DNA from: Methanobacteriota archaeon
GTDB taxonomy: Archaea; Thermoplasmatota; Poseidoniia; Poseidoniales; Poseidoniaceae
Length of the DNA: 64,000 bases
Direction: 5' to 3'
Assembly (NCBI GenBank): GCA_014240385.1
Contig: JAAZXA010000068.1
Location: 29,090-93,089, forward strand
Shown piece after piece: positions 8,153-64,000 of this stretch (the first letter of the stretch is position 1; each line of letters begins with the position of its first letter). The notes under the pieces are model-generated. The model saw only the letters and a program-made list of their open reading frames with translations, made no database searches and was not told where the DNA came from. Position numbers and translations under genes: made by a program.

Positions 8153-8162
8153 GAGCGGTTCC

Positions 8163-15919: not shown

Positions 15920-17191
15920 TCATTCCAGTATTTTCTGCATCTCCTTTTCGAGCAAAGCATCATTTCTTCGTGCTATGTGCTCTTTCATGGAGTATCGCAG
16001 ACCGTCATACTTGAGGCTGTTCAGCGTAGCCTTGCCAAGATTGGCAACAGGCTTACGCTCATACCAGTCTTTTCGCTTCATCATCTCGCCTGTAACGGGA
16101 TGAGGAACGATTTCATTTCCTTCTGGGCTTTCAGCGAGTTTCAACCATTGGAAGGGCATCAATTTCCATGCGCCTATCTTCTCAGTATATGGCTTGAATT
16201 CTTTCTTGTAGCCCGAAAGTCCTGATTTCTTATCGGGTTCTGGTGTCATCTTGTAAACATGAGTACAGTTAGGATCTTCGCACCATCCACTAGCCATAGG
16301 AGTCCTATGGTAGCCTCGGTTGCATCTACCTCCCTTGTTGAGAGGCATTCCATCTCTGTGCCATTTCTCATGCTTGTCTTCTGAGTAGAAGCGTTCTTCG
16401 ATTCCTAGAGCTTCTTGCAGCCCTATACCATCAGCGTCAATCAAACGGTCAACTTCCCATTCTTTGCAGAATGGACACCACATGCATGAACTCTTCTGGA
16501 CTGGGGAGCCATCTCCCCTGTAATCCCATCCAAGTATCTGCAACATGGCGAGGCATTCTTTCCTATTCATGTCCAATTCCTGGAGAGGATAGGAGTATTC
16601 ATGCCCTTTGACTTTGTTTTGACCGTGGTTTGCTGTGAATCTGTCAGTTCTTCCACCTTCGTTGGCTTCGATGCCAAGCATCCACCATTTTTCCGATACA
16701 GTATGGTCTCCAAAGGTTTCTTCTGCCCATTTCTGTTGGACATTTCCCTTGAATCTCATGCTGCAGGTATGTTGTTGTCCTCCAATTACTGGAAGCATTC
16801 CTCCATCCATCAACCATTCATAGATCTTGTAGACCTTTTCTCCCTTGGTGTAATCATCCTTCTCTGATTTGGGCAAACTTCTCCATTCTTCATAGCGGAG
16901 TTCTTCGCCTGTATCATTGTGATGATAAACGGGGATTGTGTGTCTAACGGTAACTACTGGCAAGCCTACTTCTGCGCATCGCTTCTCTGCGTATGCAAGG
17001 TTTTCGTAGGTTTCAGGCCATTCGCTACCGGGATCCGAGAATACGGCTGCAACGAATGGAGGAAACTTTTCGTCTAGTTCTTGTCGAGTTATCCCCAACG
17101 CTTCGGCTGAGGTGTCTCTGTCTAAGTGCATGGCTAGAAGGGCTGTTGAATCAACCCCTACGCCAAATGATAACAAGTCTATTCGTTTCAT
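15920..17191 (-). CDS. PAPS reductase-like protein with degenerate PP-loop (423 aa)
   Basis: track ORF trimmed to PM-ATG at 17191; LLSFGVGVDSTALL in place of SGGKDS; SSCMWCPFC Cys cluster as in phage PAPS-reductase/DndC-like proteins. Confidence 0.55.
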   Translation of the reverse strand: MKRIDLLSFGVGVDSTALLAMHLDRDTSAEALGITRQELDEKFPPFVAAVFSDPGSEWPETYENLAYAEKRCAEVGLPVVTVRHTIPVYHHNDTGEELRYEEWRSLPKSEKDDYTKGEKVYKIYEWLMDGGMLPVIGGQQHTCSMRFKGNVQQKWAEETFGDHTVSEKWWMLGIEANEGGRTDRFTANHGQNKVKGHEYSYPLQELDMNRKECLAMLQILGWDYRGDGSPVQKSSCMWCPFCKEWEVDRLIDADGIGLQEALGIEERFYSEDKHEKWHRDGMPLNKGGRCNRGYHRTPMASGWCEDPNCTHVYKMTPEPDKKSGLSGYKKEFKPYTEKIGAWKLMPFQWLKLAESPEGNEIVPHPVTGEMMKRKDWYERKPVANLGKATLNSLKYDGLRYSMKEHIARRNDALLEKEMQKILE

Positions 17192-17198
17192 GAGCGGT

Positions 17199-17954
17199 TT
17201 ATTCCATAGATGCAATCTTTTGCTCTATGGCTGTGTGCTTTCGAAAGATGCTTAGGCATCTAATTCGTGTGTTTGGGCCACAGGTGATTGATACCACACC
17301 ACATCTTGTTGCCCCTTTGGGCTGAATGTAAACCAAATGGTGTAAGGCGAGGAGATATCCTCCTGGCTTTAGCACCCTGATGGCTTCTTTGACCCATGAA
17401 TAGGGCTTGATGTATTCTGTTTTCCATAACTTGTCGGAGTAATCTATCTTGACTCCGTCTGTTGTTTGCATGTCGTAAGGTGGATCTGCAATAACCATGT
17501 CGTATGAATCAGTTTCAATAGGGAACTGTTGTCTGGCATCAGCTACGAATGTAGGATTATTCGCTTCGCTAATGTCCATTGTGTCTTCATTCTCCCTTCC
17601 TTGGATGCTTCCCGAGAATAGGTGTAATACCTTGGTTTCATCGGTGACTTCCATTAGGGCGTCTACTCTACGAAGGAACCCATTTGGGTAGGCTCCCTTG
17701 TATTTCGCCATTGGTCGGCCACAAGCCCACCCTAGACGGAGTGATTTTTCCGTCATGTGGGTCAATGAGGCGTCTTTCTGTTTCAATTTGTTGTAATGCC
17801 TAGCGATTCGATGAATCGTCCCTTTCGAAACTGTTTCACCAATCCTATCGCCTGCCATCTTAGCAGCATCGTCATACGAGTTATTGCTAAGATCGTTGAT
17901 TACTTGCATATGGTCTAGCAATTCAACCTTTCTTCCTTTCAATGTTAAGGACAT
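17199..17954 (-). CDS. DNA methyltransferase (N6-A/N4-C type) with N-terminal HTH
   Basis: PM-ATG; motif I VLHLFSGS, motif IV MVIADPPYD. Confidence 0.75.
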   Translation of the reverse strand: MSLTLKGRKVELLDHMQVINDLSNNSYDDAAKMAGDRIGETVSKGTIHRIARHYNKLKQKDASLTHMTEKSLRLGWACGRPMAKYKGAYPNGFLRRVDALMEVTDETKVLHLFSGSIQGRENEDTMDISEANNPTFVADARQQFPIETDSYDMVIADPPYDMQTTDGVKIDYSDKLWKTEYIKPYSWVKEAIRVLKPGGYLLALHHLVYIQPKGATRCGVVSITCGPNTRIRCLSIFRKHTAIEQKIASME

Positions 17955-29592: not shown

Positions 29593-30459
29593 TTATGTCC
29601 AAAGACTCCTCGTCATCCTCCATATCCCTGCTTTTGCGAAGTCAGGGTGTTTTTCTATCCCTACTGCGTGTCGCCCTGTGAGCATCGCAGCCAATCCTAG
29701 GCTGTATGATCCTGCAAACGGGTCGAGCACTACATCTCCAGGATAAGTGGAGAAGCGAATAAGTTCAATCAAGAGTTCAACAGGCTTTTCTGTCTGGTGA
29801 ACCTTCTTCCTACCCATCATTCTAGAGTGGGTTTGAACATCTGCTATGCTGTTATTGATTCTTCTGCGCTTCCCTTTCGAGAAGAACAGAATTAGTTCGT
29901 GTCGTGGCCGACCATTGTAGCCAAGTGATATGACTTTCTTATCCCATACCCATTGGCTATTGAATGTGAAACCTGCGGCTTCTGCAATCTTGATTTGATT
30001 GTAGATGTAGTCGTAGGTGTCGTGCTTTGCTGCAGGCATGAAGCAAAAGAAGTGTCCATTGGGCTTCAAGACCCTAAGCATCTCCGAATACAAATCCGAA
30101 TCGATGTCTTTGGTCTCAAAATCCCATCCCTTCTTGAGATTCCTTGCTCGGGTAGTTCCCGTCTGCATTTGAGCATTCAAGATTGAATACGGAGGATCTG
30201 TGATGATAGCATCGAAGCTGTTATCTTCTAACTTTGCTAATTCATCCCAACTGTCTCCTTCAATCAAAGCGCATTGTGTGTCGCCAACTGTGGCGATGTA
30301 TATGCCTCTTGATACTCTGCGAAAGCACTTGTCTATGTTTTCATTGAGTCTTCCACGAATTGTTGTTTCCTTTTCATCAGGCAATGCTTCGTATATCTCC
30401 TTGAGATTCGATTCATTGTCTGCTAGAAATTCAACCAATCTTTCTTTCAATGTTTTCAT
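29593..30459 (-). CDS. DNA methyltransferase (beta-class N4-C/N6-A, DPPY) with N-terminal wHTH
   Basis: track ORF 29593..30480 trimmed to PM-ATG at 30459; IITDPPYS then C-terminal VVLDPFAGSYS. Confidence 0.8.
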   Translation of the reverse strand: MKTLKERLVEFLADNESNLKEIYEALPDEKETTIRGRLNENIDKCFRRVSRGIYIATVGDTQCALIEGDSWDELAKLEDNSFDAIITDPPYSILNAQMQTGTTRARNLKKGWDFETKDIDSDLYSEMLRVLKPNGHFFCFMPAAKHDTYDYIYNQIKIAEAAGFTFNSQWVWDKKVISLGYNGRPRHELILFFSKGKRRRINNSIADVQTHSRMMGRKKVHQTEKPVELLIELIRFSTYPGDVVLDPFAGSYSLGLAAMLTGRHAVGIEKHPDFAKAGIWRMTRSLWT

Positions 30460-30480
30460 GAGCGGTTCAGTTTGGGTCAA

Positions 30481-42097: not shown

Positions 42098-42563
42098 GTG
42101 TGGTATAATTTCTTCGTGGTTTTAGGCCACAGGAGGTATATGAATAGGCCCTTTTACTCTCTTTCCTTTGGATCTAGAGGCCTCAAGCTGCTACTCTTGG
42201 CCTCTTTCTCTAGAAAGAGTGTATTTTGGGTATTTCTTCATGTTCTCCACTGTATTGTGCCACAGGGGGTATATGAATAGGCCACTTGCAGTCAATTTCA
42301 AGATCGCTGAAAGGGCATGATTAGCTTCTCATGCCTTCGCTTTCAATTATTGCTTCAATATGGGTATTTCTTCATGTTCTCCACTGTATTGTGCCACAGG
42401 GGGTATATGAATAGGCCATATTTCGGTAACATCTCCAGATCTCTCCTTCGAAAGCTACTCCTGGCATGGCCGTAGGCCAAACAGGGTGAAATATGGGTAT
42501 TTCTTCATGTTCTCCACTGTATTGTGCCACAGGTGTTATTTGGCAAGGCCGTTTCCGTTAACC
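42098..42563 (+). promoter_or_regulatory. four tandem promoter-like repeats at about 133-bp phasing; the last drives the TFB-like gene
   Basis: TGGGTATTTCTTCATGTTCTCCACTGTATTGTGCCACAGGGGGTATATGAATAGGCC at 42227 and 42360; degenerate copy at 42098; copy at 42493 ends GGTGTTATTTGGCAAGGCC, 28 nt before ATG 42564. Confidence 0.75.
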
Positions 42564-43694
42564 ATGGCGAGTAATGACGATACGGCCAATCAGATGGGGG
42601 CGACTGCTGATTTTTCGTCAATATCGTCTGTCCTTTGTCCTGCATTCGAACAGCCGCCTGGGTGTGCCGTCTCCCTTGCCAAGCAACAAAACTTTGATTC
42701 TTTGTCAGTCGACTCTATGACTGGGAGGGCGTATTGCGGATCATGCGGCGTGGAATTCGTTGTTGACCGTTATCAGGTTAGTCATGAGCAGAAAAAGAGT
42801 GATGATGGGATAGAAACCTACGGATCTGTTCTCTCCAAGTCTGGGAAGCAACGGAATAGGGAACAATCCTTTGACCGCCTGGGCTATCTTTGTATTAGCA
42901 AGTTGGACTTATCTCAAAGTGTGTTGGCACAAGCTACCCGCTACCTGTACGATATGATGGAAGGTGGAGCCGCTAAAGGAGGTCGGGGTTTTCCCCAACT
43001 CGAAGTGGTTGCGGCTTATGTGGCAGGTAGAATGCATAATCAATCCCTTACTCTCGAACATGTTGTTAATATCCATCGAGATTGGATTACAGAAGAAGGG
43101 GAGTTCAAATCGATAAAGGCGGCATCTATGAAATCAGTTAATCGATTGCTGCAGAATATGACTAGGGAAAACATTCTGCCTTACCCCCGCCCTTCTGCAG
43201 ATGATATCATTGGTTCTAATTCGTGGTGCTTGGCTAATCTAGATGAAGTCATTATTCAGAATGCTAAGGAGTTGTCTAATTGCGGAGTCCAAGGTTCCCC
43301 CGATTCTATTGCTGCAGCATCGGTGATGGTGGCTGCGAAGAATAAGCGTGTTGTGAAACCCGGAGATGACTTATCGCGGCCACGAACACAAATGGCCGGA
43401 GAGGAAGATGGGCAGCGTTTAACGCTCGAAGTGATTGCCAAATTGTTTCCTGGCACTACTGCTAGAACTGTAAGGCGAAGAATGAAAGAGATTAGGGATG
43501 TTTTGGAACTTAGGCTACCTCTAACACGAGAGCAAGTAGAGGTTCTTGAAAATCCTGATCCCCGCAAGGTGCGTGTCCGTAATACTGTTGAGGAAGTATT
43601 CAGTCAATTGGATTCGGAATTGGAAGGAAAGATACCATTGACTTCTAAGGATGTAGCAATTCTACGAAAATTGAAAGATTCAAACAAGAGGTAA
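42564..43694 (+). CDS. TFB/TFIIB-like transcription factor (376 aa)
   Basis: track ORF 42486..43694 trimmed to MASNDD. N-terminal Cys pairs (CPAF..GC, CGSCG). Two cyclin-like repeats: RGFPQLEVVAAYVAGRMHNQSLTLEHV and GSPDSIAAASVMVAA...LTLEVIAKLFPGTTARTVRRRMKEI. Confidence 0.7.
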   Translation: MASNDDTANQMGATADFSSISSVLCPAFEQPPGCAVSLAKQQNFDSLSVDSMTGRAYCGSCGVEFVVDRYQVSHEQKKSDDGIETYGSVLSKSGKQRNREQSFDRLGYLCISKLDLSQSVLAQATRYLYDMMEGGAAKGGRGFPQLEVVAAYVAGRMHNQSLTLEHVVNIHRDWITEEGEFKSIKAASMKSVNRLLQNMTRENILPYPRPSADDIIGSNSWCLANLDEVIIQNAKELSNCGVQGSPDSIAAASVMVAAKNKRVVKPGDDLSRPRTQMAGEEDGQRLTLEVIAKLFPGTTARTVRRRMKEIRDVLELRLPLTREQVEVLENPDPRKVRVRNTVEEVFSQLDSELEGKIPLTSKDVAILRKLKDSNKR

Positions 43695-47335: not shown

Positions 47336-47418
47336 CGCCAGGAGTGGTATACAAGTGTGTGAAATGTGGTGTTTGGAGTATGGGTACTCACAAATGCGTT
47401 CAAGAGGAGGAAGAGTAG
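47332..47418 (+). CDS. zinc-ribbon micro-protein (28 aa)
   Basis: MTPGVVYKCVKCGVWSMGTHKCVQEEEE; GGAGGGGGA SD; ATGA overlap upstream, stop abuts ATG 47419. Confidence 0.45.
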   Translation: MTPGVVYKCVKCGVWSMGTHKCVQEEEE

Positions 47419-48177
47419 ATGTTATCCGTAATCTGTTGTACTGCCCGTCAAGAGGCAGGTATCAAAGAGATGTTGAAGAGTTTGGAAAAGCAGACGCATA
47501 CTGATTTCGAGTTTGTTTTGGTTGATAAGGCATGGGAATCTCGCAACGGGGCTTTCATCCTGATGCTGGATAATTCGTCGGTTAATTGCAAATACATCAA
47601 AGACGAATCCAAACATGGATTTGTTTCGATTGCCTCTGCTCGGAACCTAGCAGTTGAGTCCTCCGATGGAGATTGGATCGTTTCAGTTGATGATAGGACG
47701 CTGTTCTACCCCGATACCTTGGAACTACATGCGCAAGCATTTGAGGAAGGTTGGGATGGTATGGCGGGTTTTTCTGATTTCCACCACGAAGGCGTTTTTG
47801 CTGAGAAAGAACCAGACAAAGAGGATGAGAGGGGAGATAACCCCCAGTCAGGACATGGGAAATATGCATCAAGTAATTTCTTTGGCTATCACATGGGGTT
47901 CTCGAAGAAGGCTTGGGCTAAGGTCCGGGGTTTCGATGAGAACTATGATGGTGTTTACGGGTGGGAAGATTGTGATTTTGGTTTGAGGCTCGGTAATGCG
48001 GGAGCGGTTGTGAAATTGGGAACCCAATGTCGTGTGCTGCAGATTCGAGACGCTGCACATGGCGAGGTTTTCCAGAAGGATGATGCGCCACATGCAATTA
48101 CTGGAGGTCACATCAGATGGCGTAATGACCGAATGTATAGGCTCACATTAATGAACAGGGGCAGGTGCAGGTGGTAA
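47419..48177 (+). CDS. family-2-like glycosyltransferase (252 aa)
   Basis: track ORF; LSVICCTARQEAGIKEMLKSLEKQTHTDFEFVLVD N-terminal GT-A pattern, VSVDD acidic motif; GAGGAGGAAG SD. Confidence 0.7.
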   Translation: MLSVICCTARQEAGIKEMLKSLEKQTHTDFEFVLVDKAWESRNGAFILMLDNSSVNCKYIKDESKHGFVSIASARNLAVESSDGDWIVSVDDRTLFYPDTLELHAQAFEEGWDGMAGFSDFHHEGVFAEKEPDKEDERGDNPQSGHGKYASSNFFGYHMGFSKKAWAKVRGFDENYDGVYGWEDCDFGLRLGNAGAVVKLGTQCRVLQIRDAAHGEVFQKDDAPHAITGGHIRWRNDRMYRLTLMNRGRCRW

Positions 48178-53918: not shown

Positions 53919-54029
53919 TTGATACATTGTACCCAAGTTTGCCCTGAATGTGGCAAAGTTGCATGTGTTGGGCATATGCGATGTCATTCATGCGGGTATT
54001 TTCTTCGCGTTGAAGATCTAGTTCGGTAG
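53919..54029 (+). CDS. possible zinc-ribbon micro-protein (36 aa, TTG start)
   Basis: GGTGAGG precedes the TTG; CPECG...CHSCG; overlaps a convergent gene end; weak. Confidence 0.3.
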   Translation: MIHCTQVCPECGKVACVGHMRCHSCGYFLRVEDLVR

Positions 54030-54995
54030 TCCATATTCCAGAACTTCATCTAGAAGCTTCTCGTAATCAGCATCATACTCTTCTGCGTCTGGCCTTCCCT
54101 TTCTGCCGCTATTGACGAAATACACACCGTAAGGAACACGGCCTTGAGATACCATGTATTCTGCGACTCTGTGATTAGAGAGCAGCAAAGCAAATGAATG
54201 TGTTAAACCCGCATTGCGTCCCATCGTTTTATTGAAGCGAGGGCCTTTTGGCCGTCCCCTTGTATTTTTCTCCAACTTACGAACCCAATTTTGGTATGAA
54301 GTGTAACGAACATAGGGAATCCCTCGTTCTTTGATCTGCTCAATCACTTCCCAACAAGAGCCAAAACCATGATTTGAGACTCGGGTATCATCATAACCGT
54401 AAGTAACTGAAAAATCATTCCGCCCAGGGGCTATCTCAATGTTAGAATTCAAAACTTGACCGCCATGAGTTCTGGATTCAACTTTGACCCATTCTCCCTT
54501 AATTTGCTTTGGACGGCCATGAGCAGTCCAACACCACAACGAAAAAGGAGTCCTATGCATTTCATTGATACTTGGATCTCTTTTGTAATCCTTCCAATCC
54601 TTGAATCTGCAAAGAACGGTGATGTCGCCCCCATTGACCGCTCTATCAAACGAGTTTGCTTGAATAGAGATTAACGCCCGAGTAAATCCGAGTTCTTCTT
54701 CATATCGAGGCGTAGTTCTTGGTTCTCGATTATTGAATGGCCCCCGATTAAGTCGAACTGGGTGCTCATCAGGAAGATGGCCGATGAAATTTGATGCTTC
54801 CACATCAGGTTTGAGCAACATGGATATTGTACCCACGCGCTTGTTGATTTCCAATCTCACTTTTTCTTCGCCATCCCATGTAGGGTTGCGCTTAGGACAA
54901 CAGTAGCAAGCAACAGTGGCTCTACTCAGCCCGTCCAAACACCATTCAAATTCCCAATCGTCATTTCCTTCTAATTCACGCACTATTACTCGCAT
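54018..54995 (-). CDS. hypothetical protein (325 aa)
   Basis: track ORF; minus-sense TTTATGAGCC box (55019-55026) begins 31 nt upstream of the ATG. Confidence 0.7.
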   Translation of the reverse strand: MRVIVRELEGNDDWEFEWCLDGLSRATVACYCCPKRNPTWDGEEKVRLEINKRVGTISMLLKPDVEASNFIGHLPDEHPVRLNRGPFNNREPRTTPRYEEELGFTRALISIQANSFDRAVNGGDITVLCRFKDWKDYKRDPSINEMHRTPFSLWCWTAHGRPKQIKGEWVKVESRTHGGQVLNSNIEIAPGRNDFSVTYGYDDTRVSNHGFGSCWEVIEQIKERGIPYVRYTSYQNWVRKLEKNTRGRPKGPRFNKTMGRNAGLTHSFALLLSNHRVAEYMVSQGRVPYGVYFVNSGRKGRPDAEEYDADYEKLLDEVLEYGLPN

Positions 54996-55190
54996 AAGGA
55001 AAATAAGGGTGGTCTCGGCTCATAAACCCCACGATGGGGGAAGACTAAACCGAATGATCCCCGTAGGGCCAAGTGGACGGCAGGAGGGGCATCGGAGAGG
55101 TCGACACACGCAAATGTGCAGACTCCGATACTCCTGTCGTCCACCTGAGCATTAGAAATAAATGGCGGCGGTATATGTGATCTTCGCTGA

Positions 55191-55200
55191 CCCCCCCCCC
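55191..55200. repeat. C10 homopolymer tract in an intergenic region
   Basis: read directly (gctga cccccccccc atgaaag). Confidence 0.9.
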
Positions 55201-55297
55201 ATGAAAGTGAAAGTGTTGAATATGAATTGAGCCCCGGCGATACTGAGGGTATATGAACTATGCATAGTGGAAGAATTTCCTTGCGGCAGTAATGAAG

Positions 55298-55371
55298 CGG
55301 CCCCACGGGGATTTGAACCCCGGTTACTGGTTCCGCAAACCAGTGTGATATCCAAGCTACACTATGGGGCC
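55298..55371 (-). tRNA. tRNA-Arg (anticodon GCG), no encoded CCA
   Basis: GGCCCCA/TA/GTGT..TCAC/A/CTGGT-TTGCGGA-ACCAG/TAAC/CGGGG-TTCAAAT-CCCCG/TGGGGCC/G. Confidence 0.85.
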
Positions 55372-55839
55372 TTAATCTTCCCATTCATCTTCTCTGTAGT
55401 GGCATTCTACGGAATAGTTGTCCATTTCTATGTCGTCGATCTCCGCCTTCTCGCGTTCCTCTACCAATTTTTGCGTTAGGGCTACGGCCAATACGCCATC
55501 ATCCATAGAGAATCTCCAGAACATTGTTACAAGGCTTACCTTTCCCGGCCCTCCAACCATAGGTACAAGTTCTAGATTGTGTCCTTCGTATTGTTCTTCC
55601 CACCCTGGCACTAATTTCTGAATTTCACCCATTACAGATTCAGCATTGCCGAGGCCGTCAACTTCGAAGGTCACTTCAACCATCCAACATCTTAGGTTGG
55701 AAAGTTCCTCTTGTACAATTTCTGCTAATTCATTAGACAGTTTTTCATTATCTATCTTAATCTCGGTTGAGTCGCAGTTCGGACATTCCTTTTGTCCATC
55801 GACCCATGGTTTTCCACATATTGCACATTTCTTTTTCAT
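55372..55839 (-). CDS. protein with N-terminal zinc ribbon (155 aa)
   Basis: track ORF; CAICGK...CPNC; its stop codon (55372-55374) directly abuts the tRNA-Arg 5' end. Confidence 0.7.
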   Translation of the reverse strand: MKKKCAICGKPWVDGQKECPNCDSTEIKIDNEKLSNELAEIVQEELSNLRCWMVEVTFEVDGLGNAESVMGEIQKLVPGWEEQYEGHNLELVPMVGGPGKVSLVTMFWRFSMDDGVLAVALTQKLVEEREKAEIDDIEMDNYSVECHYREDEWED

Positions 55840-55840
55840 C

Positions 55841-55966
55841 TTAATCCGCCTCGTATTGGTGGTGTCCGCATTGGAGGCAGATTACAATTACCCCCGCCCC
55901 ACAGAACTGGTTGCTCGGAACCTCATTCATAATTACATCCATTGATTCGCACTCCCTACACCGCAT
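55841..55966 (-). CDS. zinc-ribbon micro-protein (41 aa)
   Basis: MRCRECESMDVIMNEVPSNQFCGAGVIVICLQCGHHQYEAD fills the gap between neighbouring genes exactly. Confidence 0.5.
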   Translation of the reverse strand: MRCRECESMDVIMNEVPSNQFCGAGVIVICLQCGHHQYEAD

Positions 55967-55971
55967 TGGGA

Positions 55972-56559
55972 TCACGACTTCATCAATTTCTTGATTTCTC
56001 GTACCCCATCTTCCATGTTATGAGGTTCCCAATCGCCATATTTCCATGTGAAGTCTTTCACTATGGCCCCTTGACGATTTCTCTTGTCCACCTTGACCCA
56101 GAGGATCTTAGCGAAGCAGAAGGGGTATTTTCCGTATTCTTCGAAATATTTACTGATGTACCAGAAAGCAGTCTCTGGGTCTTTGGTGATAGCTTCGATG
56201 CCGAAGTTCACGCCTTCTCTCCTGGTAGGACATTTTTTCAAATGACAATATACAGGTAGATTGTGATTGTAGACAATGAATAAATTGTCGGTTTTTCGTC
56301 TGAATATCGCTTTCCAAAACGGCATCTTTGGGGCTTCTTCCTTCATGCCATCGAGCGCATTCTGTAGTTCTCTTTTGTGAAAATCTTTGAGTTTTCGGAT
56401 TTCCCGCTCATGGCTATTTTTCATTTCTTGGTCTCTTTTTTGCAGGGCCATTTCTCTTTCGAGAGATGTTCCGTCATTCACCAATGGAAGGTTTGCCTTC
56501 GCTTTTTCGTTCATATCTCTATGTTTTTGTTTTCTGCCTTCGGAACGCTTTTCGCCCAT
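55972..56559 (-). CDS. hypothetical protein (195 aa)
   Basis: track ORF; GAGGTGA SD 5 nt upstream. Confidence 0.7.
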   Translation of the reverse strand: MGEKRSEGRKQKHRDMNEKAKANLPLVNDGTSLEREMALQKRDQEMKNSHEREIRKLKDFHKRELQNALDGMKEEAPKMPFWKAIFRRKTDNLFIVYNHNLPVYCHLKKCPTRREGVNFGIEAITKDPETAFWYISKYFEEYGKYPFCFAKILWVKVDKRNRQGAIVKDFTWKYGDWEPHNMEDGVREIKKLMKS

Positions 56560-56568
56560 TTCTTCACC

Positions 56569-56739
56569 TCATTTTCTTTGTGTTAGCAAGTCGGTTACAG
56601 TAAGAGCAACAAGGCCGAATCCGAATACCACTAGGGATCTTTGCATGATTCCTGTTTCCAACATCATGCCCAATCCTGCGCAGAGCATTCCAATTAGTGC
56701 TGCCCTTCTCTTGAATGCGTTTTCTATTGTTTCAATCAT
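56569..56739 (-). CDS. small membrane protein (56 aa, 2 TM), below track cutoff
   Basis: AGGTGGGACA-ATG SD; MIETIENAFKRRAALIGMLCAGLGMMLETGIMQRSLVVFGFGLVALTVTDLL. Confidence 0.55.
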   Translation of the reverse strand: MIETIENAFKRRAALIGMLCAGLGMMLETGIMQRSLVVFGFGLVALTVTDLLTQRK

Positions 56740-56747
56740 TGTCCCAC

Positions 56748-57239
56748 CTATTGGAATTTCTTGTCCCAGTCTCGAATCTCTACAGTCTTAACGAACTTGG
56801 TTCCTTTGCCCTTGCATACATGGCATGAGCCCTTGTAATGTTGGTGGCCTTTGCATTCAGGATAGGTTGAGCATACGAATACCTTCTTTACAGTCCACAC
56901 TGGTTCTTGGTATTCTTTGAAAGCCATGGGCAATAATAGAAATGCCCATTGGTTGCCAAAGAAATCTTTGTGTTCATCGTTAAGATCTGATGGCGGCATT
57001 GTTCGGGCGTGTGTTGAGCGTTCAAAGGGGCCGAATGCTGCCTCTTTCCGTTCTAAATGGCCCAATGTAGAGATGCCGTATGGGGTTTTCTTGCTTATTT
57101 CATCAACTATTTCTTTCATCATCTTCTCTACATTCTCTACTGTTCTTTCGTCTGAATCTTCGATGGATTTGTTCAGGTTGATGGCCCAATGCATCTTCAA
57201 CTCAGGTTTTTCCTTTTGTTGGTTTTTTCTTACAGTCAA
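56748..57239 (-). CDS. protein with C-terminal DnaJ-type CxxCxGxG zinc finger (163 aa, TTG start)
   Basis: track ORF; GAGGAGGA SD 6 nt before the TTG; CHVCKGKG. Confidence 0.65.
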   Translation of the reverse strand: MTVRKNQQKEKPELKMHWAINLNKSIEDSDERTVENVEKMMKEIVDEISKKTPYGISTLGHLERKEAAFGPFERSTHARTMPPSDLNDEHKDFFGNQWAFLLLPMAFKEYQEPVWTVKKVFVCSTYPECKGHQHYKGSCHVCKGKGTKFVKTVEIRDWDKKFQ

Positions 57240-57547
57240 GCTTCATCCTCCTCTTGGTTTAGAACTTCTGTGTCGTTAAGTGTGATTTTCCCATCTCCAT
57301 CGTTGTCTTCAAGAGATAGTATGCCTGTTGGAGACCCCATCGTTAGACGCCATATTTTCTCATTTACAATAATATCCCCAGCAATGGTTGGCCCTTCGAA
57401 TATTGTGATAACCCACCAGCCTACGGTTCCTCCGATAATTATCAGTCCTAGGTAATTTATGGGCGTTGATGGGTCAAATATGATGAAACATAGCATCGTA
57501 GCAATAATTGAAGCGAATATTGGCCTACCTAGATCTCGGTTATTCAT
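57236..57547 (-). CDS. membrane protein with EF-hand-like Ca-binding loop (103 aa)
   Basis: track ORF; 2 TM segments; DNDGDGKITLND fits DxDxDGxIxxxD/E. Confidence 0.65.
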   Translation of the reverse strand: MNNRDLGRPIFASIIATMLCFIIFDPSTPINYLGLIIIGGTVGWWVITIFEGPTIAGDIIVNEKIWRLTMGSPTGILSLEDNDGDGKITLNDTEVLNQEEDEA

Positions 57548-57563
57548 GTGCTCACCGAACCTT

Positions 57564-58385
57564 CTACTCTTCCTCAGTCGCTTGATTGTTTTGGAAAGGA
57601 ATGGTTATTTCAGGTTCGGCCACAAGGGTTGGATGTATGCCTTCTACTACCTCTCCATCAACATCCATCATGCCATAGATGTACAAATTCTTTTTCTCGA
57701 GAATGTTCTTGATTGTCTGTCTGTGCCAGACCACCTTTCCCTTCCTTGTTTTGATGGCTTTTGTTGCTAGTTCATTGATTATGTCGGATATTGTGTAGCC
57801 TTGAGTTTCCATATTGAAGATTATGTTTACTACGCTTGCTTCTTCTTCGTTTGGTACAAGCAAACCTTTCTTGGATCTCTTTCCTGTATCATCGATTTCA
57901 ATATTCATGTCATACCCATAGGGGGGTGTTCCAAGCCAAATTCCTTTCAACTTTGCACCTGCCATGCCCATTTTGACTCTTTCTTTGATTTCATTTCGCC
58001 TTAGTTCAGCCAATGCTGCGAATACTATGTAGAAGAAGCGGCCTTGAACCGTTGTAGTGTCCATTTGTTCAGAGATACATGCAATATGGCAGTTGTTTGT
58101 ATCAATTGTGTTTACAAATTCAATTGCGTTCATGGTGTTGCGATGAAACCGGTCTAGTTTGTAACCAACTACTGCGTCCCATTCTTCGCCCATGGTTTCC
58201 ATCATCGCACCATATCCAGGCCTGTTGTCTGTGAATCCACCTGATCCTGTATCTGAGTAGCTTCGAATGTAAGTCCAACCTTGCATTTCGATGTAGTTCT
58301 GGCAAAGCCTCAACTGTTCCTCTAGGCTGTGGCCTTTTGCTTCTTGCTTCTCGGTTGAAACTCTTGTGTAGATTATTGCTCGCAT
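57564..58385 (-). CDS. serine recombinase (resolvase/invertase catalytic domain plus C-terminal extension)
   Basis: MRAIIYTRVSTEKQ...GHSLEEQ...YSDTGSGG...RPGY; canonical N-terminal Ser-recombinase motifs. Confidence 0.85.
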   Translation of the reverse strand: MRAIIYTRVSTEKQEAKGHSLEEQLRLCQNYIEMQGWTYIRSYSDTGSGGFTDNRPGYGAMMETMGEEWDAVVGYKLDRFHRNTMNAIEFVNTIDTNNCHIACISEQMDTTTVQGRFFYIVFAALAELRRNEIKERVKMGMAGAKLKGIWLGTPPYGYDMNIEIDDTGKRSKKGLLVPNEEEASVVNIIFNMETQGYTISDIINELATKAIKTRKGKVVWHRQTIKNILEKKNLYIYGMMDVDGEVVEGIHPTLVAEPEITIPFQNNQATEEE

Positions 58386-58703
58386 TTACTCTTCCTCTCC
58401 CCTGTCCCAATTTTGGAAGTCAACTGGAGCACCGTTTGATTCAATAAGGGGGGTGTCGGACTCGCTCTTGAAAACTGCTTGAAGGCGTAAATGTTGCCGC
58501 CATACCCTCATTTGGTCGTTTTCGATGGGTATAGGCTCATCACATTCACATTCAGGGGCAGGCACATCCAAATAGTCTGCTGTTGCCATCACGCAATCAG
58601 CGATTAGGTCAATTTTCCCGTTGATCTGGTCGATTGATGATTTGATTATCCAGAAAAAGATTGATGCAAAAATAATTGCAACTGTCAAGTGAATTTCGTG
58701 CAT
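58386..58703 (-). CDS. hypothetical protein with N-terminal TM (105 aa)
   Basis: track ORF; its stop TAA abuts the recombinase ATG. Confidence 0.65.
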   Translation of the reverse strand: MHEIHLTVAIIFASIFFWIIKSSIDQINGKIDLIADCVMATADYLDVPAPECECDEPIPIENDQMRVWRQHLRLQAVFKSESDTPLIESNGAPVDFQNWDRGEEE

Positions 58704-59082
58704 GGTTCGTTCACCATAACCTTGGTTAATTGTCGCTATGAAGGGTCAGTCGTATTACACCTTCGCCCTGTGAACCGAATTATCACCCGTTTAACACGCT
58801 ATTCCCCCCCACATAGGGGGTATGTTGACGATGAAGGAGTTCCTTTGCGCTCAACCCCCCCACCTTCATAGTCAAAAACGGGTATTTTTCACCTCATAAC
58901 TTCTCATTGAATCGCAAGTCCTCACATCACATCTCAATTGTAAGGTTGGGGTGGAATGAACCTCATGTGGTTCTGCGCTTCTAACCTTCGTTCACAGGCA
59001 ATTCCAATTCCTATCTACACATTAGGGGTGAATTACCTACTTCGTGCAACAAGGGATCTAGATGAAACAATAGGAAACAAGG

Positions 59083-59156
59083 CGGGTCATGCAGGGTTCG
59101 AACCTGCGGCCTACTGGTTAAGAGCCAGTCGCTCTACCTGACTAAGCTAATGACCC
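59083..59156 (-). tRNA. tRNA-Lys (anticodon CUU)
   Basis: GGGTCAT/TA/GCTT-AGTCAGGTA-GAGC/G/ACTGG-CTCTTAA-CCAGT/AGGCC/GCAGG-TTCGAAC-CCTGC/ATGACCC/G. Confidence 0.9.
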
Positions 59157-59263
59157 AGTTGTTAGTGTGGTGTCCGACTTCGCAGAAGTCATAGGGTTAG
59201 TATGGTGTGAGGACCGTTGTTCGCTCCATCGGACGGACCAAGCGAAGTGTTTTAGTCGGATAA

Positions 59264-59572
59264 TCATTTCCAAGGATTTAGGCTATTTATGTTGTAATCA
59301 ACCAACAGATCAGTCTTCTTCGAAGAGGATTTGTCGTTGATGTACCAACCGAGGGCGGTGCAAGCAAAGTCTCCAAGGATGTTTAGGGCTGTGTCTTTGG
59401 AGTTATCGGGGAATACGCTGCTGAGTTTTTCCTTGAGGTAGTAATTTTCAAGCAGTTCGAAGGCAGTATGGAGAACCAATGTGGTTCCAAGAGTTAGGCC
59501 TACCCCTCTGGCGATTACGCCCATGGCAGCGTGTCCGATTGAGTATGGATCAATGAAGCCCTGGTTGCTCAT
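59264..59572 (-). CDS. hypothetical membrane-associated protein (102 aa)
   Basis: track ORF 59264..59680 trimmed to the ATG with AAGGAGGGAGATTA SD (TAATG overlap with the upstream stop). Confidence 0.65.
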   Translation of the reverse strand: MSNQGFIDPYSIGHAAMGVIARGVGLTLGTTLVLHTAFELLENYYLKEKLSSVFPDNSKDTALNILGDFACTALGWYINDKSSSKKTDLLVDYNINSLNPWK

Positions 59573-60015
59573 TAATCTCCCTCCTTGAATTTCAATAATG
59601 GTGTACCGTAGGAGCTTTCCCGGAATACATCCAGGTCTTTGTGCCTCAGTAGTGCTCCACTGCCCATCTTGGAGTACCACATTCCCTCAATCTTTCTAGA
59701 TCCATGCTTTACCGTGATGTCGCCTATGGCGTTAATTTCTCCGTATATGCAAACTGTGGCTTTATCGTCCTCAAAGGTAGGGGTATAACCGTGTTTTTTG
59801 TAAAACCTGATGAACTCTAGATAAGATGATGTTCCATCTTTGTTAAGATCTATTTCATTCCATACCCATCTGTCCTTTACACCGATGGTGAATGCTATGC
59901 AATTGTAGGCTTTGGTGTATCTATCGATTACCTCGTATTTGAGGTGTGGGAATTGGTTTCTGTAAGTTGTGAGCAACCGGGGTCGATGTGGATGAGGCCC
60001 TCTCAGTTCATGCAC
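59572..60015 (-). CDS. hypothetical protein (147 aa)
   Basis: track ORF. Confidence 0.65.
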   Translation of the reverse strand: MHELRGPHPHRPRLLTTYRNQFPHLKYEVIDRYTKAYNCIAFTIGVKDRWVWNEIDLNKDGTSSYLEFIRFYKKHGYTPTFEDDKATVCIYGEINAIGDITVKHGSRKIEGMWYSKMGSGALLRHKDLDVFRESSYGTPLLKFKEGD

Positions 60016-60026
60016 TTAGAGGCCCC

Positions 60027-60656
60027 CTAGAATCCATACGGTTGCCCTAGTAGCCCTCTCGCATTACTGTGTCCGTCTAGGTTAGTGTATCTTCGTCTCG
60101 ATATCTCAACGAATTTCAAGAATATTGTTCCTGTTGTCTGGAGGTTTTGAACCTTCAAACGGATTCTATGCCTGTATGGCCTAAGACCTCGGAACATTGC
60201 TACTTTGAGTGTGGCTGTATCTTTCTTCAAGAACCAATTTCCATACTGCTCAGGCATTCCTAAATCAGATACATCTTCAAGGATGATTCCTTGGTATGAT
60301 GATGATGATGTCGTGTCGTAATGGCTTTCCAATCCGCCTTGAGCGAATCCGTCTAATTGTAAGAAGACTGCGAGTTTCTCAGGGTTTGCAGGGGTGCTTC
60401 CGTCTGGAAGGTCGCCTGCATCTGCTGTAGCTTGAATAATCACATAGTTCAATTCCCCGGATTCTCTGTCATCGAGAATTGTTAGGGTTTCGCCAGCCGC
60501 TATTTCGATTTTGTTTCTGCGGATGGTGATGTCTCGAAGATCTTGTTGGTCTGCTCTGCCGCCATCCATACCTGCCATCGGATCTATGATTAGAGGTATT
60601 TCCATTGGCGGTGCTGAGTCAATTATATCGCTAATTCCATCTGGTTCGTGTTCCAT
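60027..60656 (-). CDS. hypothetical (probably virion-associated) protein (209 aa)
   Basis: track ORF; TGATG overlap with the upstream fibre-like gene. Confidence 0.65.
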   Translation of the reverse strand: MEHEPDGISDIIDSAPPMEIPLIIDPMAGMDGGRADQQDLRDITIRRNKIEIAAGETLTILDDRESGELNYVIIQATADAGDLPDGSTPANPEKLAVFLQLDGFAQGGLESHYDTTSSSSYQGIILEDVSDLGMPEQYGNWFLKKDTATLKVAMFRGLRPYRHRIRLKVQNLQTTGTIFLKFVEISRRRYTNLDGHSNARGLLGQPYGF

Positions 60657-63511
60657 CAGTAATCCCTCCGATGTGTTGAGCGTGGGTCTCTGCGTTGTTT
60701 ATGCCTTCTCCTGGATGTGCCGTTAAGGATTACTTCTGTCTGAGGTGTTATTTGGTTCGTGGCATTGTCGAACTCTTGTTTGTTCATTGGAGTTCCTTTG
60801 TGGTTCCTTACATGCTCATGCCAACCCTCAGCAGGTCCAGCAGGCCCAGCAGTTCCTCTACCGAGTCCTTGTTTCTTGTATGCATCTAGAGCGTGTGGGA
60901 TTACTTCGTATTTGAATCCGCCAGATCTCTTAGTCATTCGTCTGACTTCTGGGTCTGGGACTGGTCGAAGTTTGTATTTGTAGCCAACAATGGTGAGCAC
61001 AGGATCTAAGATGTCTTCATCATTACCTGCAATCTGGAATTCGGGTAGGTTCTCTTCACCAACTCCGACCCAGAGCATGTAGGTTGGGTTCGGAGCAATT
61101 GCTGGAGATTCATTGGCTGTTATCCATCCTGTTTTGTTAATCATCAGGGCATCATTGTTATCCATTCCTACATCGTCTCTGAATGCTACTCCTTGAGCCG
61201 CGAACTTTGGTACTCCTTTTGGTTGGTATACTCGAAGTCTTGCGCTTGTGTAGCCAACGAATGTTTTCTGCATTTTCCCTCGAGTTGTTGTTGGTGCAGT
61301 CCAGTCGCATTGGTAGGCTGTTCCGTTGTCTGGTAGTTTACCAAGTTGGTCTCTCATGACACCTCCGAAATGCGTTGATTTAGGACCTGTTTCGGTAGTC
61401 CCAGCATTGAGGACAGTTAATTGTTCATCAGTATCAAAAAGGTATGTTGTTGGGGAGAAGGGTACATCGCTTCGGGTAGCCTTGGCGAAACCACCTGCTG
61501 CAGTAATGAATTTGGGTGTGTGATTCAAACCAACGCCTACATGATATACGACTGACTTGTCTTTTTTGGATAAGGTGTCCAATATTGTGGCTTGGAATTT
61601 GTTTAGCATTGTTTGCGTTCCTGCGGCTTCTGAACCAGCATGTCCAGGAATGAATTGGATTCGAACAGGATCTCCTGCTACGAATCCTTGGTGAGTAAGG
61701 GCTGCTGTGGTGAAAGTACCTTGTTTGTTGCTCAATGTAACTGCCCCTGTAATTTTTGCTACCTCACGGACGGCTCCGTTTTGCCCTCCAAATATGATGT
61801 CGGTTCCTACAGGTATTACGAGGCTGTCCCATGAGCTTCCAGCAATGGCCTCATTTTCTGTTACATTGATTACAAATGATGTCATCCCTACATTCAATGA
61901 AACCAATTCTGCCTCGAGACCCACTGGGAGTGCAACCGTCAATGAATCAACGCCGGTTACCCTGTGTAACCCTGCGCCCGTCATTACCAATTGTCCTGGC
62001 ATCAACTTCTGCGGGACTCTTCCTCCTTGAGCGAGGGCGGCTCCTGCTGGTTTTGTGTTGGGTGCGGTCTTCCTCGTTACTTTGATGGTTTGGAGACCTC
62101 CTCGAGTCACTACTGCATTCTTGTTGTAGTTGTTCAATGTTGAAGTGGCTGTTGCCTTGGTTGATGAGCCACCTCCAGTGAATGTGATTGGGGGCGGGGT
62201 TCCATAACCTGCTCCGGGATTGGTAATATCAACTGATTCAACAGTTGTTGAGGTTAATGTGGCGGTCATGGTTTCTGCGGCGCCACAGTTGGCTTGACCT
62301 GCTAGGAGCGCAGTAGATGAGGCAATTGCGTATGCTCCCGTTCCGCCTGAATCTGCTGCTATGGGAAGGACTGCTGCCCCGAACTGGTCGCAGAATGGAT
62401 CTGCTGGTAATACAGTTAATGTCGGGGGTGCGGTGTAACCTGCTCCTGGCGTTGATACTGTAACTGAAGCTATTGTGGTTGGAATGAGGCTGGCGACTGC
62501 AGTGGCACCGCTTCCTGCAAACCCCGTAAGGCCTGATAAGTCGATGGTGGGTGCTGATGTGTAACTTCCACCTGCTGATGTTATGGTTACTACTGTGATT
62601 GTATTGCCTGCGACATCTACTGTTGCAGTACCAGATCCACTTACTGTAATGCTTAGGCCGGTCCCATTGGTTAGGCCTGTTCCTGCATTGGTGATTGTAA
62701 TTCTTCCTAGAGTGGTTGCGGTTAATACTGGAACACATACTGCTGCAGTTGTTGGTGTGTCGTCATTTGACGGGGTGACTACGAGTGTTGGAACCTTCGT
62801 ATACTTCGCTGTAAGGGCGCTGCCCTCAGAACGGGCTACTGCTGAACCTGCTACGGCGACTGATGCTACGCTAGTGCCTGTTAATTTGGCAACTGCGGTA
62901 GCACCGCCCCCAGTATCAATCCAAGCCTCTGCTTCTGCTGAATAGGTTGGGTCACTTTGAGCACTACTGGAACCTGTTGAATCTGTAAGGGCGACCGTAG
63001 GCGGTGTTGTATACCCACTTCCTCGAGAATTGGCATCGGTTGTATCGCCTTGAGGGAATATGATTTGTTGGATTGTACCATTGCGAATGTAAGCAAATGC
63101 TAGGGCTCCAGAACCTGCGCCTCCGGAGAAGGCGATTTTAGGCCCGATTTCATACCTGCTAGTGGTATCGGGGTTTGTACCCCATGTAGACACCGTAGCA
63201 GACTTTGTAGCGCCCGTGTAATCCGTTATTTCACGGACTTGCCCTGCGCCCGTCCCAGATTCGATGTAAATGTATGCGCCATTGTAGTAATCGTCAGCGG
63301 CATTTGCTGTTCCTGCTAGAACTATTGTAGTTCCGCTTCCGCCTGTTGCCATTCCGTTTGTGTGATTGTCATAGATGAAGCGTCCTGCACCGCTTGAACC
63401 GTCATTGAGGATGTTCAATTTGGTTATGAAGCCCGAAACAACGGCAACTGTCGGAACAGTTTCATAACTGACTCCTGCGCCCGTTATTTCGATTGATTTT
63501 ATACCTGCCAT
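60656..63511 (-). CDS. large fibre/decoration-like structural protein with repeated GxGYTxxPxV modules (951 aa)
   Basis: track ORF. At least four G(S/A)GYT(T/A/S)(P/A)PT(V/L/I) repeats. ADDYYNGAYIYIESGTGAGQVREITDYTGATKSATVS motif common in phage fibre proteins. Gly/Thr/Ala-rich. Confidence 0.6.
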   Translation of the reverse strand: MAGIKSIEITGAGVSYETVPTVAVVSGFITKLNILNDGSSGAGRFIYDNHTNGMATGGSGTTIVLAGTANAADDYYNGAYIYIESGTGAGQVREITDYTGATKSATVSTWGTNPDTTSRYEIGPKIAFSGGAGSGALAFAYIRNGTIQQIIFPQGDTTDANSRGSGYTTPPTVALTDSTGSSSAQSDPTYSAEAEAWIDTGGGATAVAKLTGTSVASVAVAGSAVARSEGSALTAKYTKVPTLVVTPSNDDTPTTAAVCVPVLTATTLGRITITNAGTGLTNGTGLSITVSGSGTATVDVAGNTITVVTITSAGGSYTSAPTIDLSGLTGFAGSGATAVASLIPTTIASVTVSTPGAGYTAPPTLTVLPADPFCDQFGAAVLPIAADSGGTGAYAIASSTALLAGQANCGAAETMTATLTSTTVESVDITNPGAGYGTPPPITFTGGGSSTKATATSTLNNYNKNAVVTRGGLQTIKVTRKTAPNTKPAGAALAQGGRVPQKLMPGQLVMTGAGLHRVTGVDSLTVALPVGLEAELVSLNVGMTSFVINVTENEAIAGSSWDSLVIPVGTDIIFGGQNGAVREVAKITGAVTLSNKQGTFTTAALTHQGFVAGDPVRIQFIPGHAGSEAAGTQTMLNKFQATILDTLSKKDKSVVYHVGVGLNHTPKFITAAGGFAKATRSDVPFSPTTYLFDTDEQLTVLNAGTTETGPKSTHFGGVMRDQLGKLPDNGTAYQCDWTAPTTTRGKMQKTFVGYTSARLRVYQPKGVPKFAAQGVAFRDDVGMDNNDALMINKTGWITANESPAIAPNPTYMLWVGVGEENLPEFQIAGNDEDILDPVLTIVGYKYKLRPVPDPEVRRMTKRSGGFKYEVIPHALDAYKKQGLGRGTAGPAGPAEGWHEHVRNHKGTPMNKQEFDNATNQITPQTEVILNGTSRRRHKQRRDPRSTHRRDY

Positions 63512-63530
63512 CTAGATCACCTTCGTGATC

Positions 63531-64000
63531 TCAGACTGCGAAATCATCTTGCATTGTTCCTGCATGAGGCAGGCCGTAGTCCGTGATGATTTTGTAGTGT
63601 AGCTTCCCGTTGTTCGATGCCCTCATTTCTTCTACCTTTGCTCTGCTTAGAGGCGTTACGCGAATTTTGTAGCCTTCGAGATAGATGACTGGGTCGTAGC
63701 AAACTTCACCCGATACATTCAAAAATCTGAAATTTGGCAAATTGCTCTCGCCTTCGGAAATCCAAATACCAAACGCAGGGTTAGGGTCGTCCTGTGGACT
63801 GTTGTTTACATCAATCCATCCTGTCTTGTCGTCTCCGGGACTCTCATCAGCGGACCATCTTGGGATTCCAGAGGGATGCTGTAGGAAGCAACGGCCTGAG
63901 ATATCTCCGACCTTCATTCTCTGTGCTGCACCTACTGTCTTCAATGCTGCAGAAAGTGTGATTTCAGTTGTGTCGTTAGGGAATCCTACTCCGTTGTAAG
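63531..64000 (-). CDS. structural protein paralog, C-terminal part only (N-terminus beyond window end)
   Basis: frame open to 64000 upstream of the track TTG start; the last ~110 aa align with the C-terminal region of the 951-aa protein. Confidence 0.6.
   Translation of the reverse strand, partial: YNGVGFPNDTTEITLSAALKTVGAAQRMKVGDISGRCFLQHPSGIPRWSADESPGDDKTGWIDVNNSPQDDPNPAFGIWISEGESNLPNFRFLNVSGEVCYDPVIYLEGYKIRVTPLSRAKVEEMRASNNGKLHYKIITDYGLPHAGTMQDDFAV

Follow-up and report, generated by a model that had tools for sequence, protein, structure and literature searches.

The 64,000-nucleotide stretch of contig JAAZXA010000068.1 analysed here (the window) encodes a short serine recombinase that, judged by its sequence and a structural model, is an enzyme of the large serine recombinase (LSR) lineage stopping where the zinc-ribbon and coiled-coil part would begin. 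Its gene is a conserved, syntenic gene of an uncultured marine virus family with contigs of up to ~129 kb. Upstream of it lies a stretch poor in open reading frames (ORFs) that, by its conservation, is a real functional element, far beyond chance. We tentatively favour a resolvase-like system in which the recombinase would act on a site within this element. A preliminary description of the window had joined the recombinase, a tRNA-Lys(CUU) gene and the non-coding DNA between them into one module for integration or inversion; the recombinase and the non-coding element are real, whereas the tRNA-Lys is not part of such a module.

The short recombinase and its family

57564..58385, minus strand: serine recombinase ORF with an ATG start, 273 aa, N-terminus MRAIIYTRVSTEKQEAKGHSLEEQ, holding the signature SDTGSGG...RPGY

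The full serine-recombinase catalytic signature reported earlier for this ORF is confirmed: the frame is intact, Pfam assigns residues 3-149 to the Resolvase domain PF00239 (E value 2.9e-35), and the key residues are invariant. The nucleophile, Ser10, lies in the motif YTRVSTEKQ and is invariant in 12 aligned sequences, and Y6, R8, S10, Q14, R55, D78, R79, and R82 do not vary across the recombinase family. We take R8, R55, D78, R79, and R82 to correspond to R8, R45, D67, R68, and R71 of the gamma-delta enzyme. With its catalytic motifs present and invariant, the recombinase appears to be catalytically intact.

Residues 180-254 match the Recombinase domain PF07508 (E value 2e-8), which occupies the position of the HTH_7 domain of small resolvases and invertases; Pfam finds neither HTH_7 nor the zinc-ribbon domain PF13408 in the protein. 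The PHROG 95 “integrase” profile matches with an E value of 1.4e-67 and is covered just at positions 88-343 of 651, with PHROG 125 “DNA invertase” as a secondary match. The NCBIfam models for CcrB, CcrA, and XisF match far under their cut-offs, and the IS607 model gives 45 bits versus a cut-off of 110. The AlphaFold model (predicted local distance difference test score of 83) contains the catalytic fold, helix E at residues 113-146, and a mixed beta/alpha domain; the modelled recombinase domain spans approximately residues 150-250, and a disordered acidic tail at 259-273 ends in TEEE. Foldseek ranks the SPbeta, Bxb1, and phiC31 integrases highest, in each case through the N-terminal half (E values of 1e-13 to 1e-15 for SPbeta and Bxb1), and what aligns in solved LSRs is limited to N-terminal domain, helix E, and recombinase domain. 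By sequence, the catalytic domain of TP901-1 is the top match among solved structures (E value 1.3e-23). No coiled-coil motif of LSRs is found in the recombinase by Pfam or in the AlphaFold model, nor in the neighbouring ORFs by HHalign.

A split LSR, with the zinc ribbon and coiled coil supplied by a neighbouring gene, is rejected on the same comparison. Eleven neighbouring ORFs were aligned by HHalign with a profile built on the C-terminal parts of 64 full-length LSRs, nine of them as family alignments and the 105-aa and 325-aa ORFs alone, having no homologues; the best probability was 12%, on a CxxC motif only. LSRs depend on the zinc ribbon and coiled coil for reading the outer half-sites, for selectivity among attP, attB, attL, and attR, and for the response to a directionality factor. 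Because the window recombinase has neither, it would be unable to discriminate att sites in the LSR fashion, and any selectivity must therefore come from accessory sites or partner proteins.

Short length is shared throughout the family. A search of 5.8 billion proteins returned eight close homologues of 265-276 aa, and a marine metagenome scan gave 134 relatives, from which 80 loci (numbered with an L below) were retained, 76 of them with a complete ORF. All 76 complete ORFs encode 248-290 aa, at 36-89% identity, which argues that the short form is the functional form. The earlier remark that the protein is shorter than large serine integrases thus holds (273 aa versus 450-700 aa). Within the close family, the C-terminal N-x-x-T-TEEE tail is kept. 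Having about half the length of typical LSRs, the recombinase could be taken for a decaying, truncated integrase pseudogene; the shared length and end point in 76 homologues, the invariant catalytic residues, and the conserved tail effectively refute this, leaving it a negligible probability.

The family falls into two clades. Clade 1 (L001-L022 and L095-L098) is 53-89% identical to the window recombinase and occurs on the marine contigs of up to ~129 kb. Clade 2 is 36-43% identical and equally short, and its loci lie in other obscure viral contexts that have no clade-1 neighbour gene in common. A DNA methyltransferase gene directly precedes the short recombinase in clade-2 loci.

The nearest relatives beyond the family, in a profile search of 1.84 billion representatives, include many proteins of 247-330 aa intermixed with full-length LSRs. 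Among INPHARED phages, the matches are solely full-length LSRs of ~496 aa, none above 33% identity, with serine integrases of temperate phages at 30-33%. IMG/VR holds no match to the recombinase or the element, and exact-pattern scans of limited sensitivity found neither a clade-1-like recombinase nor the element core in 185,579 GTDB species-representative genomes. Neither LSR-type recombinases with the recombinase domain alone nor any magrovirus serine recombinase came up in a literature search. The enzyme belongs to a known class with known chemistry; its architecture, that of a natural LSR lacking both zinc ribbon and coiled coil and kept across many probably archaeal marine viruses, is not described in the literature found, and neither is the element that goes with it.

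The conserved non-coding element

58701..59082, minus strand: conserved non-coding element, ~380 nt here and 400-450 nt elsewhere, from the tRNA 3′ end to the first 3-4 codons of the next ORF
59073-59082 (R1), 59063-59072 (R2), and 59045-59054 (R3), minus strand: three direct repeats CCnTGTTTCC with start-to-start spacing of 10 and 18 nt
58922..58995, minus strand: GAACC/GGTT dyad cluster, comprising GTGAACGAAGGTTAG (58981-58995), GAACC-N6-GGTTC (58958-58973), and CCAACCTT (58940-58951), with differing spacings
58734..58871, minus strand: GC-rich core of nested dyads, 138-159 nt across lineages
58834..58845, minus strand: invariant 12-mer AAGGAACTCCTT, an AAGGA/TCCTT inverted repeat around a non-palindromic AC
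59081..59156, minus strand: tRNA-Lys(CUU) as delimited by ARAGORN; 59083..59156 by Rfam (72 bits)

Positions 58704-59082 had been called ORF-poor, and no credible ORF is found there: the only two ORFs in the region are on the plus strand, measure 60-61 aa, and run antisense to every gene nearby. Together with the tRNA, the element is 82% identical over 469 nt to L009, L010, and L012, where the ORFs on the recombinase side are unrelated. A single-sequence nhmmer query recovers it in more distant lineages (E values of 3e-14 to 7e-12), and an nhmmer profile recovers it in 18 of the 18 clade-1 loci with enough upstream flank. In clade 1 it lies ~0.3-1.5 kb upstream of the recombinase, and the ORFs between the two are swapped. 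A 98%-identical strain has no substitutions in the element versus 14 in the flanks, a difference that is suggestive only. The element is single-copy in the window, and so is its core. A search of positions 54000-64000 against Rfam 15 (E value up to 1) gives two tRNAs, two chance-level matches overlapping them, and none for the element. In clade-2 loci, the element is not found by nhmmer, motif search, or covariance model, and a scan there for other conserved upstream non-coding DNA is too diffuse to interpret.

The count and spacing of the direct repeats (9-10 and 18-19 nt) recur in most lineages, including L001, L005, L018, L020, and L021; in L001, L003, and L015 and in L020, the first copy is more degenerate and escaped the pattern scan, and L005 carries one additional upstream copy. 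The dyad-cluster columns are invariant in 11 sequences from ~8 lineages, and the dyads are followed by an almost invariant AGATGTGATGnGA (58922-58934). The core is closed by the inverted repeat ATGAAGG (58863-58869)/CCTTCAT (58738-58744), which reads A[C/T]GAAGG...CCTTC[G/A]T across lineages, and is ordered as a G-run, GTTGA, the 12-mer, TCAAC, and a C-run. The hairpin CCCCC-ACATA-GGGGG, singled out in the preliminary description, is present at 58806-58820 inside this core. The 12-mer is identical in 19 of 19 copies, one per locus, and is unique at zero mismatches in the window. It centres an imperfect palindrome of ~46-50 bp, and nhmmer aligns this region to itself on the opposite strand. At its 3′ edge, the element ends in a ribosome-binding site, GAACCATG, and the first codons of whichever ORF comes next.

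The tRNA-Lys(CUU) does lie about 700 nt upstream of the recombinase, as had been stated (696 nt from the start codon, with the gene called by both ARAGORN and Rfam). It is full length, sits exactly on the 5′ edge of the element, and is confined to the window's own lineage, namely L009 and L010 and the 5′ end of the L013 and L022 copies. It is missing from L001, L002, L005, L006, and L007, which retain recombinase and element alike. Like the tRNA-Arg described below, it is a passenger and stands outside the recombinase module. The suggestion of a tRNA-linked attP is rejected, since the tRNA is complete, lineage-specific, and missing where recombinase and element persist.

Folding evidence bears on the form in which the core acts. 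Covariance model R1 matches the window copy at 95 bits and finds ten further loci at 103-165 bits, with no match in any clade-2 locus. In a hand-drawn core structure, derived from the same few, related sequences on which it was scored, 78% of cells are paired versus 73% in column shuffles (none of 500 reaches 78%) and 30-53% when the structure is slid. Changes on both sides affect nine core pairs; among them, the closing helix shows CG<->UA, and column pair 19-47 shows UA/GC/AU/GU. In three lineages the core folds far better than shuffles (sense z scores of -4.6, -4.9, and -2.7), and the antisense strand of the same three folds equally well (-3.7, -5.6, and -1.8). The window's own copy is not unusually stable (z of -1.3 to -1.4). 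By our own count, G.U and A.C cells are about equally frequent, giving no sign of strand-specific RNA. A strand-specific RNA structure is thus not borne out, as antisense folds as well as sense. The safe statement is that the core has conserved nested dyad symmetry, which may act in RNA or in DNA. An invariant 12-mer that shows no covariation, together with the phasing of the direct repeats, points to protein recognition of DNA; the translation start inside the element points to a leader.

Genomic setting and probable host

Gene order in clade 1 is constant: a ~255-aa protein, a 938-993-aa protein, a 208-209-aa protein, small ORFs, DUF7689, the element, variable ORFs, the recombinase, six conserved small ORFs, and an opposite-strand glycosyltransferase block. 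The corresponding features of the window are as follows.

63531-63944, minus strand: preceding fibre-like gene (~255 aa in relatives)
60656-63511, minus strand: 951-aa Gly/Thr/Ala-rich fibre-like protein with internal repeats
59572-60015, minus strand: DUF7689 protein (E value 1.9e-21), always just upstream of the element in clade 1
58386..58703, minus strand: 105-aa ORF, a predicted membrane protein, lineage-specific, whose stop codon abuts the recombinase ATG
55372..57547, minus strand: six small ORFs downstream of the recombinase (103, 163, 56, 195, 44, and 155 aa), co-oriented and syntenic
55297..55371, minus strand: tRNA-Arg(GCG), called by ARAGORN and Rfam; conserved at the same position in L009 and L010
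42486-53449, plus strand: 11-kb opposite-strand block with a GT4/GT1 fusion glycosyltransferase (839 aa), a GT2 glycosyltransferase, and a TFB homologue

Strains 98-100% identical to the window are colinear with it. Every clade-1 locus with sufficient flank has viral genes on both sides, and no host-virus junction is seen in these loci. Pfam and PHROG scans find no repressor-like neighbour of the recombinase. The slot between element and recombinase is variable: it is filled here by the 105-aa ORF, which has a homologue in no related locus, and elsewhere by two to four different ORFs (three in L009 and L010).

The small ORFs downstream of the recombinase have tblastn matches in up to 20 clade-1 loci, at 34-75% identity. 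The 163-aa protein (56748-57239, minus strand) carries a DnaJ-like C-x2-C-x-G-x-G motif, and the 44-aa (55841-55975, minus strand) and 155-aa (55372-55839, minus strand) proteins carry CxxC pairs. Pfam assigns no family to these zinc-knuckle ORFs, and HHalign finds no relation to the LSR zinc ribbon. No mention of DUF7689 was found in the literature search. The two fibre-like genes had been described as having paralogous C-terminal domains, and they do share such a domain of ~130 aa (34% identity over 139 aa, E value 2e-20). Neither protein has a Pfam, PHROG, or NCBIfam match, and both genes are conserved and same-oriented in every lineage. The orientation of the 11-kb block relative to the recombinase is likewise identical in all lineages.

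Unrelated proteins of these viruses end in ...EEE: the 105-aa ORF in GEEE (58386-58394), the recombinase in TEEE (57564-57575), and an ORF of L009 in KEEE (~9330-9345). These ends are encoded by GAGGAAGAG and then the stop codon, with the next ATG starting directly afterwards at two of the junctions. The EEE/GAGGAAGAG end has the appearance of a motif that recurs at gene junctions or couples translation, and spurious inverted-repeat matches arise from it. A 28-nt inverted match between 47407-47434 and 58370-58397 was discarded as a pair of crossover sites, being the shared GAGGAAGAGTAnATG gene-junction motif, with the same orientation in all relatives. DNA-modification genes are unusually many in the window, all on the minus strand (2909-3856, 5479-6354, 7247-8209, 15920-17215, 17199-17954, and 29593-30480); the set consists of Dam-like and N6/N4 methyltransferases and two PAPS-reductase-like proteins.

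The host of the virus is probably archaeal, because the window encodes a protein with the TFB fold and a tRNA-Arg(GCG). The former, a 402-aa protein (42486-43694, plus strand), has an N-terminal Cys4 pattern and two cyclin-like repeats. TFIIB-repeat Pfam matches are weak and occur in five of its six homologues, and the best Foldseek matches of its model are all TFIIB/TFB, including Pyrococcus woesei TFB (template-modelling scores of 0.75-0.77). As for the tRNA, typical bacteria use Arg ACG, read as ICG. The Arg anticodon GCG is an archaeal choice that typical bacteria do not use (PMC8879553). Sigma-70-type promoters and intrinsic terminators are not enriched, the promoter scan being uninformative for archaea. 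Integrases of marine archaeal viruses are almost always tyrosine recombinases. Marine archaeal viruses have been called lytic for want of integrases (PMC11706807).

Candidate functions and comparison with known systems

The reading that we tentatively favour is that the recombinase acts on a single site in viral DNA, in resolvase-plus-res fashion, and resolves genome multimers. Its site would lie within the element, with crossing over at AAGGA-AC-TCCTT; we infer both the element as the recombination site and resolution as the reaction. Serine recombinases follow an established scheme of binding, synapsis, cutting, rotation, and religation, and in Tn3, gamma-delta, and Sin the res sites lie upstream of the resolvase genes. 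Applied here, recombinase dimers would bind an inverted-repeat site, and two copies of the site, on two genome copies, would be brought together in a tetramer synapse. Ser10 would then cut both strands at the central dinucleotide, and one pair of subunits would rotate by 180 degrees before the ends are religated, such that multimers arising from replication or recombination would become monomers. Positions 58701-59082, which head the gene string containing the recombinase, are the best candidate for the site together with accessory or regulatory sequences, and the invariant AAGGA-AC-TCCTT dyad at 58834-58845 is the most likely crossover point.

The resolvase role is favoured because a single repeat-rich site region heading the gene string of the recombinase resembles the resolvase-plus-res layout. 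With one DNA-binding module per subunit, the recombinase would also be more resolvase-like than integrase-like in what it can read. The clade-1 recombinases occupy one syntenic position, and the element is present in every locus with enough flank. Several points weigh on the other side. No recombination product of any kind is seen, and the window covers only half of a ~128-kb genome. Variable ORFs spanning 0.3-1.3 kb separate the element from the recombinase, whereas a classical res abuts the resolvase gene, and a three-subsite res with one common motif or a shared subsite plan is not recognisable in the element. Because the equally short clade-2 recombinases occur without the element, its link to the clade-1 enzymes could be mere synteny. 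The repeat motifs differ from one another, so that a single protein probably does not bind all of them. Finally, the 3′ edge at the ribosome-binding site and start codon and the compensatory changes in the helices fit a promoter and leader RNA just as well.

In a close rival reading, itself rather doubtful, the element is a promoter/operator with a structured 5′ leader, or a viral replication origin, and the recombinase site lies elsewhere, such as in the other half of the genome. That the element, regardless of which ORF follows, ends exactly at the ribosome-binding site, ATG, and first 3-4 codons of this ORF agrees with a leader, as do an upstream CATGGTT segment that can pair with the AACCATG start region, closing and inner helices with compensatory changes (78% paired versus 73% in shuffles), and possible alternative pairings of the G-run and C-run. 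However, sense folds no better than antisense, G.U cells are about as frequent as A.C cells, the z score of the window copy is only -1.3 to -1.4, there is no Rfam family, and no sigma-70-like promoter is found in the element by a scan that is uninformative for archaea. The centre of the 12-bp stem-loop is moreover invariant rather than covarying, which suggests sequence-specific protein recognition. The direct repeats, being phased, have the look of operator or iteron sites and are similar to half of the archaeal origin recognition box (ORB) consensus (PMC1868953), and clade-2 recombinases that do without the element suit a leader or an origin alike. An ORB-type origin was nonetheless set aside: the half-motif GGAAAC-AA-GGGG alone is present, in three direct copies, with no ORB dyad half, no AT-rich unwinding stretch, and no orc1/cdc6 among the scanned neighbours. 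The element might instead be, in whole or in part, the attP of a phage-type integrase that recombines attP with attB, perhaps at a tRNA gene, to establish lysogeny, a reading that we regard as unlikely. The closest characterised relatives are indeed integrases of phages and mobile elements (PHROG 95; temperate-phage integrases at 30-33%), the ~46-50-bp imperfect palindrome with its non-palindromic central AC is similar to att sites in both size and form, and small serine recombinases can act as tRNA-gene integrases, as in the filamentous Ralstonia phage RSM. Set against this, the domains for att recognition and directionality (zinc ribbon and coiled coil) are absent, also from the neighbouring genes; no clade-1-like recombinase or element core appears in the 185,579 genomes, exact patterns limiting the sensitivity; clade-1 loci with enough flank have viral DNA on both sides; the tRNA-Lys is complete and lineage-specific; and the Pfam and PHROG scans show no repressor-like neighbour of the window recombinase.

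A Hin/Gin-type invertase switching the adjacent fibre-like genes or a promoter, as the preliminary description had proposed, is extremely unlikely. The PHROG 125 match, two neighbouring structural genes with a common C-terminal domain, and the opposite-strand block at 42.5-53.4 kb would suit it. The failure to find inverted crossover sites, already conceded in that description, now extends to positions 40-64 kb of the window and to ±10 kb of L001, L005, and L009, where no inverted repeats exceed chance and the sole recurrent ones lie within the element. The element is single-copy, the paralogous genes point the same way, no lineage or strain departs from the common gene order and orientation, and the C-terminal domain is that of LSRs and not the small helix-turn-helix (HTH) of invertases. 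Very unlikely as well is a reading by loose analogy with IS110 bridge RNAs, in which the element, as structured RNA or folded DNA, would replace the zinc-ribbon and coiled-coil domains and guide or license the short recombinase at its target. It is allowed because the specificity domains are absent, the element always accompanies the clade-1 recombinase, and its nested helices show some compensatory change; the variable ORFs between element and gene, the lack of strand bias in folding, and the clade-2 enzymes without the element count against it.

LSRs are prized tools in genome engineering, and it is the zinc-ribbon and coiled-coil domains that are credited with their choice of sites and their one-way action. 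A natural, widespread, and conserved clade with the catalytic and recombinase domains alone raises the question of how sites are found and paired, and a recombinase of ~270 aa offers a compact scaffold for tests. Should the host prove archaeal, large marine archaeal viruses would have a serine recombinase among their conserved genes. Few stretches of these genomes are as conserved as the ~400-bp element, for which no known family gives a match; be it res or att site, origin, or leader RNA, it is a handle on the biology of viruses without a cultured host.

Among known systems, LSRs (phiC31, Bxb1, TP901-1, SPbeta SprA, CcrA/B, and XisF) share with the window recombinase the catalytic domain, a long helix E, and PF07508. 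They differ in having a zinc ribbon and coiled coil within 450-700 aa, where the window protein has neither in ~270 aa, and in having att sites and integrated forms, none of which is known for the window recombinase. IS607-type and resolvase-like proteins are the main serine recombinases known in archaea. The IS607-family transposases and archaeal resolvase-like proteins (ISC1904, ISC1926, and MJ0014) share the serine-recombinase catalytic fold and give weak matches; in contrast to the window recombinase, whose catalytic domain is N-terminal and whose gene is syntenic and not mobile, the IS607 type has an N-terminal MerR-type HTH and a C-terminal catalytic domain.

In the euryarchaeal ORB consensus, the 3′ part reads GTTCCAGTGGAAAC-AAA----GGGGG (PMC1868953). 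On the plus strand, the direct repeats of the element read GGAAACAAGG(GG) and resemble the right half of that consensus and its G-string, a likeness that serves as a lead and not as a test. Unlike ORBs, the window repeats do not have the GTTCCAG dyad half, run in one orientation, and are not inverted around an AT-rich unwinding element. The likeness to the IS110 bridge-RNA recombinases is a functional analogy only, in that both combine a recombinase short of DNA-recognition domains with a dyad-rich upstream non-coding region. IS110 enzymes are of the DEDD and not the serine type, and in the window ORFs lie between element and gene and clade-2 homologues do without the element.

The small serine recombinases (Tn3/gamma-delta resolvase, Sin, Hin, and Gin) are similar in size to the window recombinase and have one DNA-binding module after helix E. 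The inverted hix/gix-type sites of Hin and Gin have no counterpart in the window. In small resolvases, the module is an HTH_7 of ~40 aa and the site abuts the gene, whereas the window recombinase has an LSR recombinase domain of ~100 aa and a candidate site 0.3-1.3 kb away. Their res nevertheless invites comparison with the repeat-rich non-coding region upstream of the window recombinase, and the proposed role in multimer resolution would be alike.

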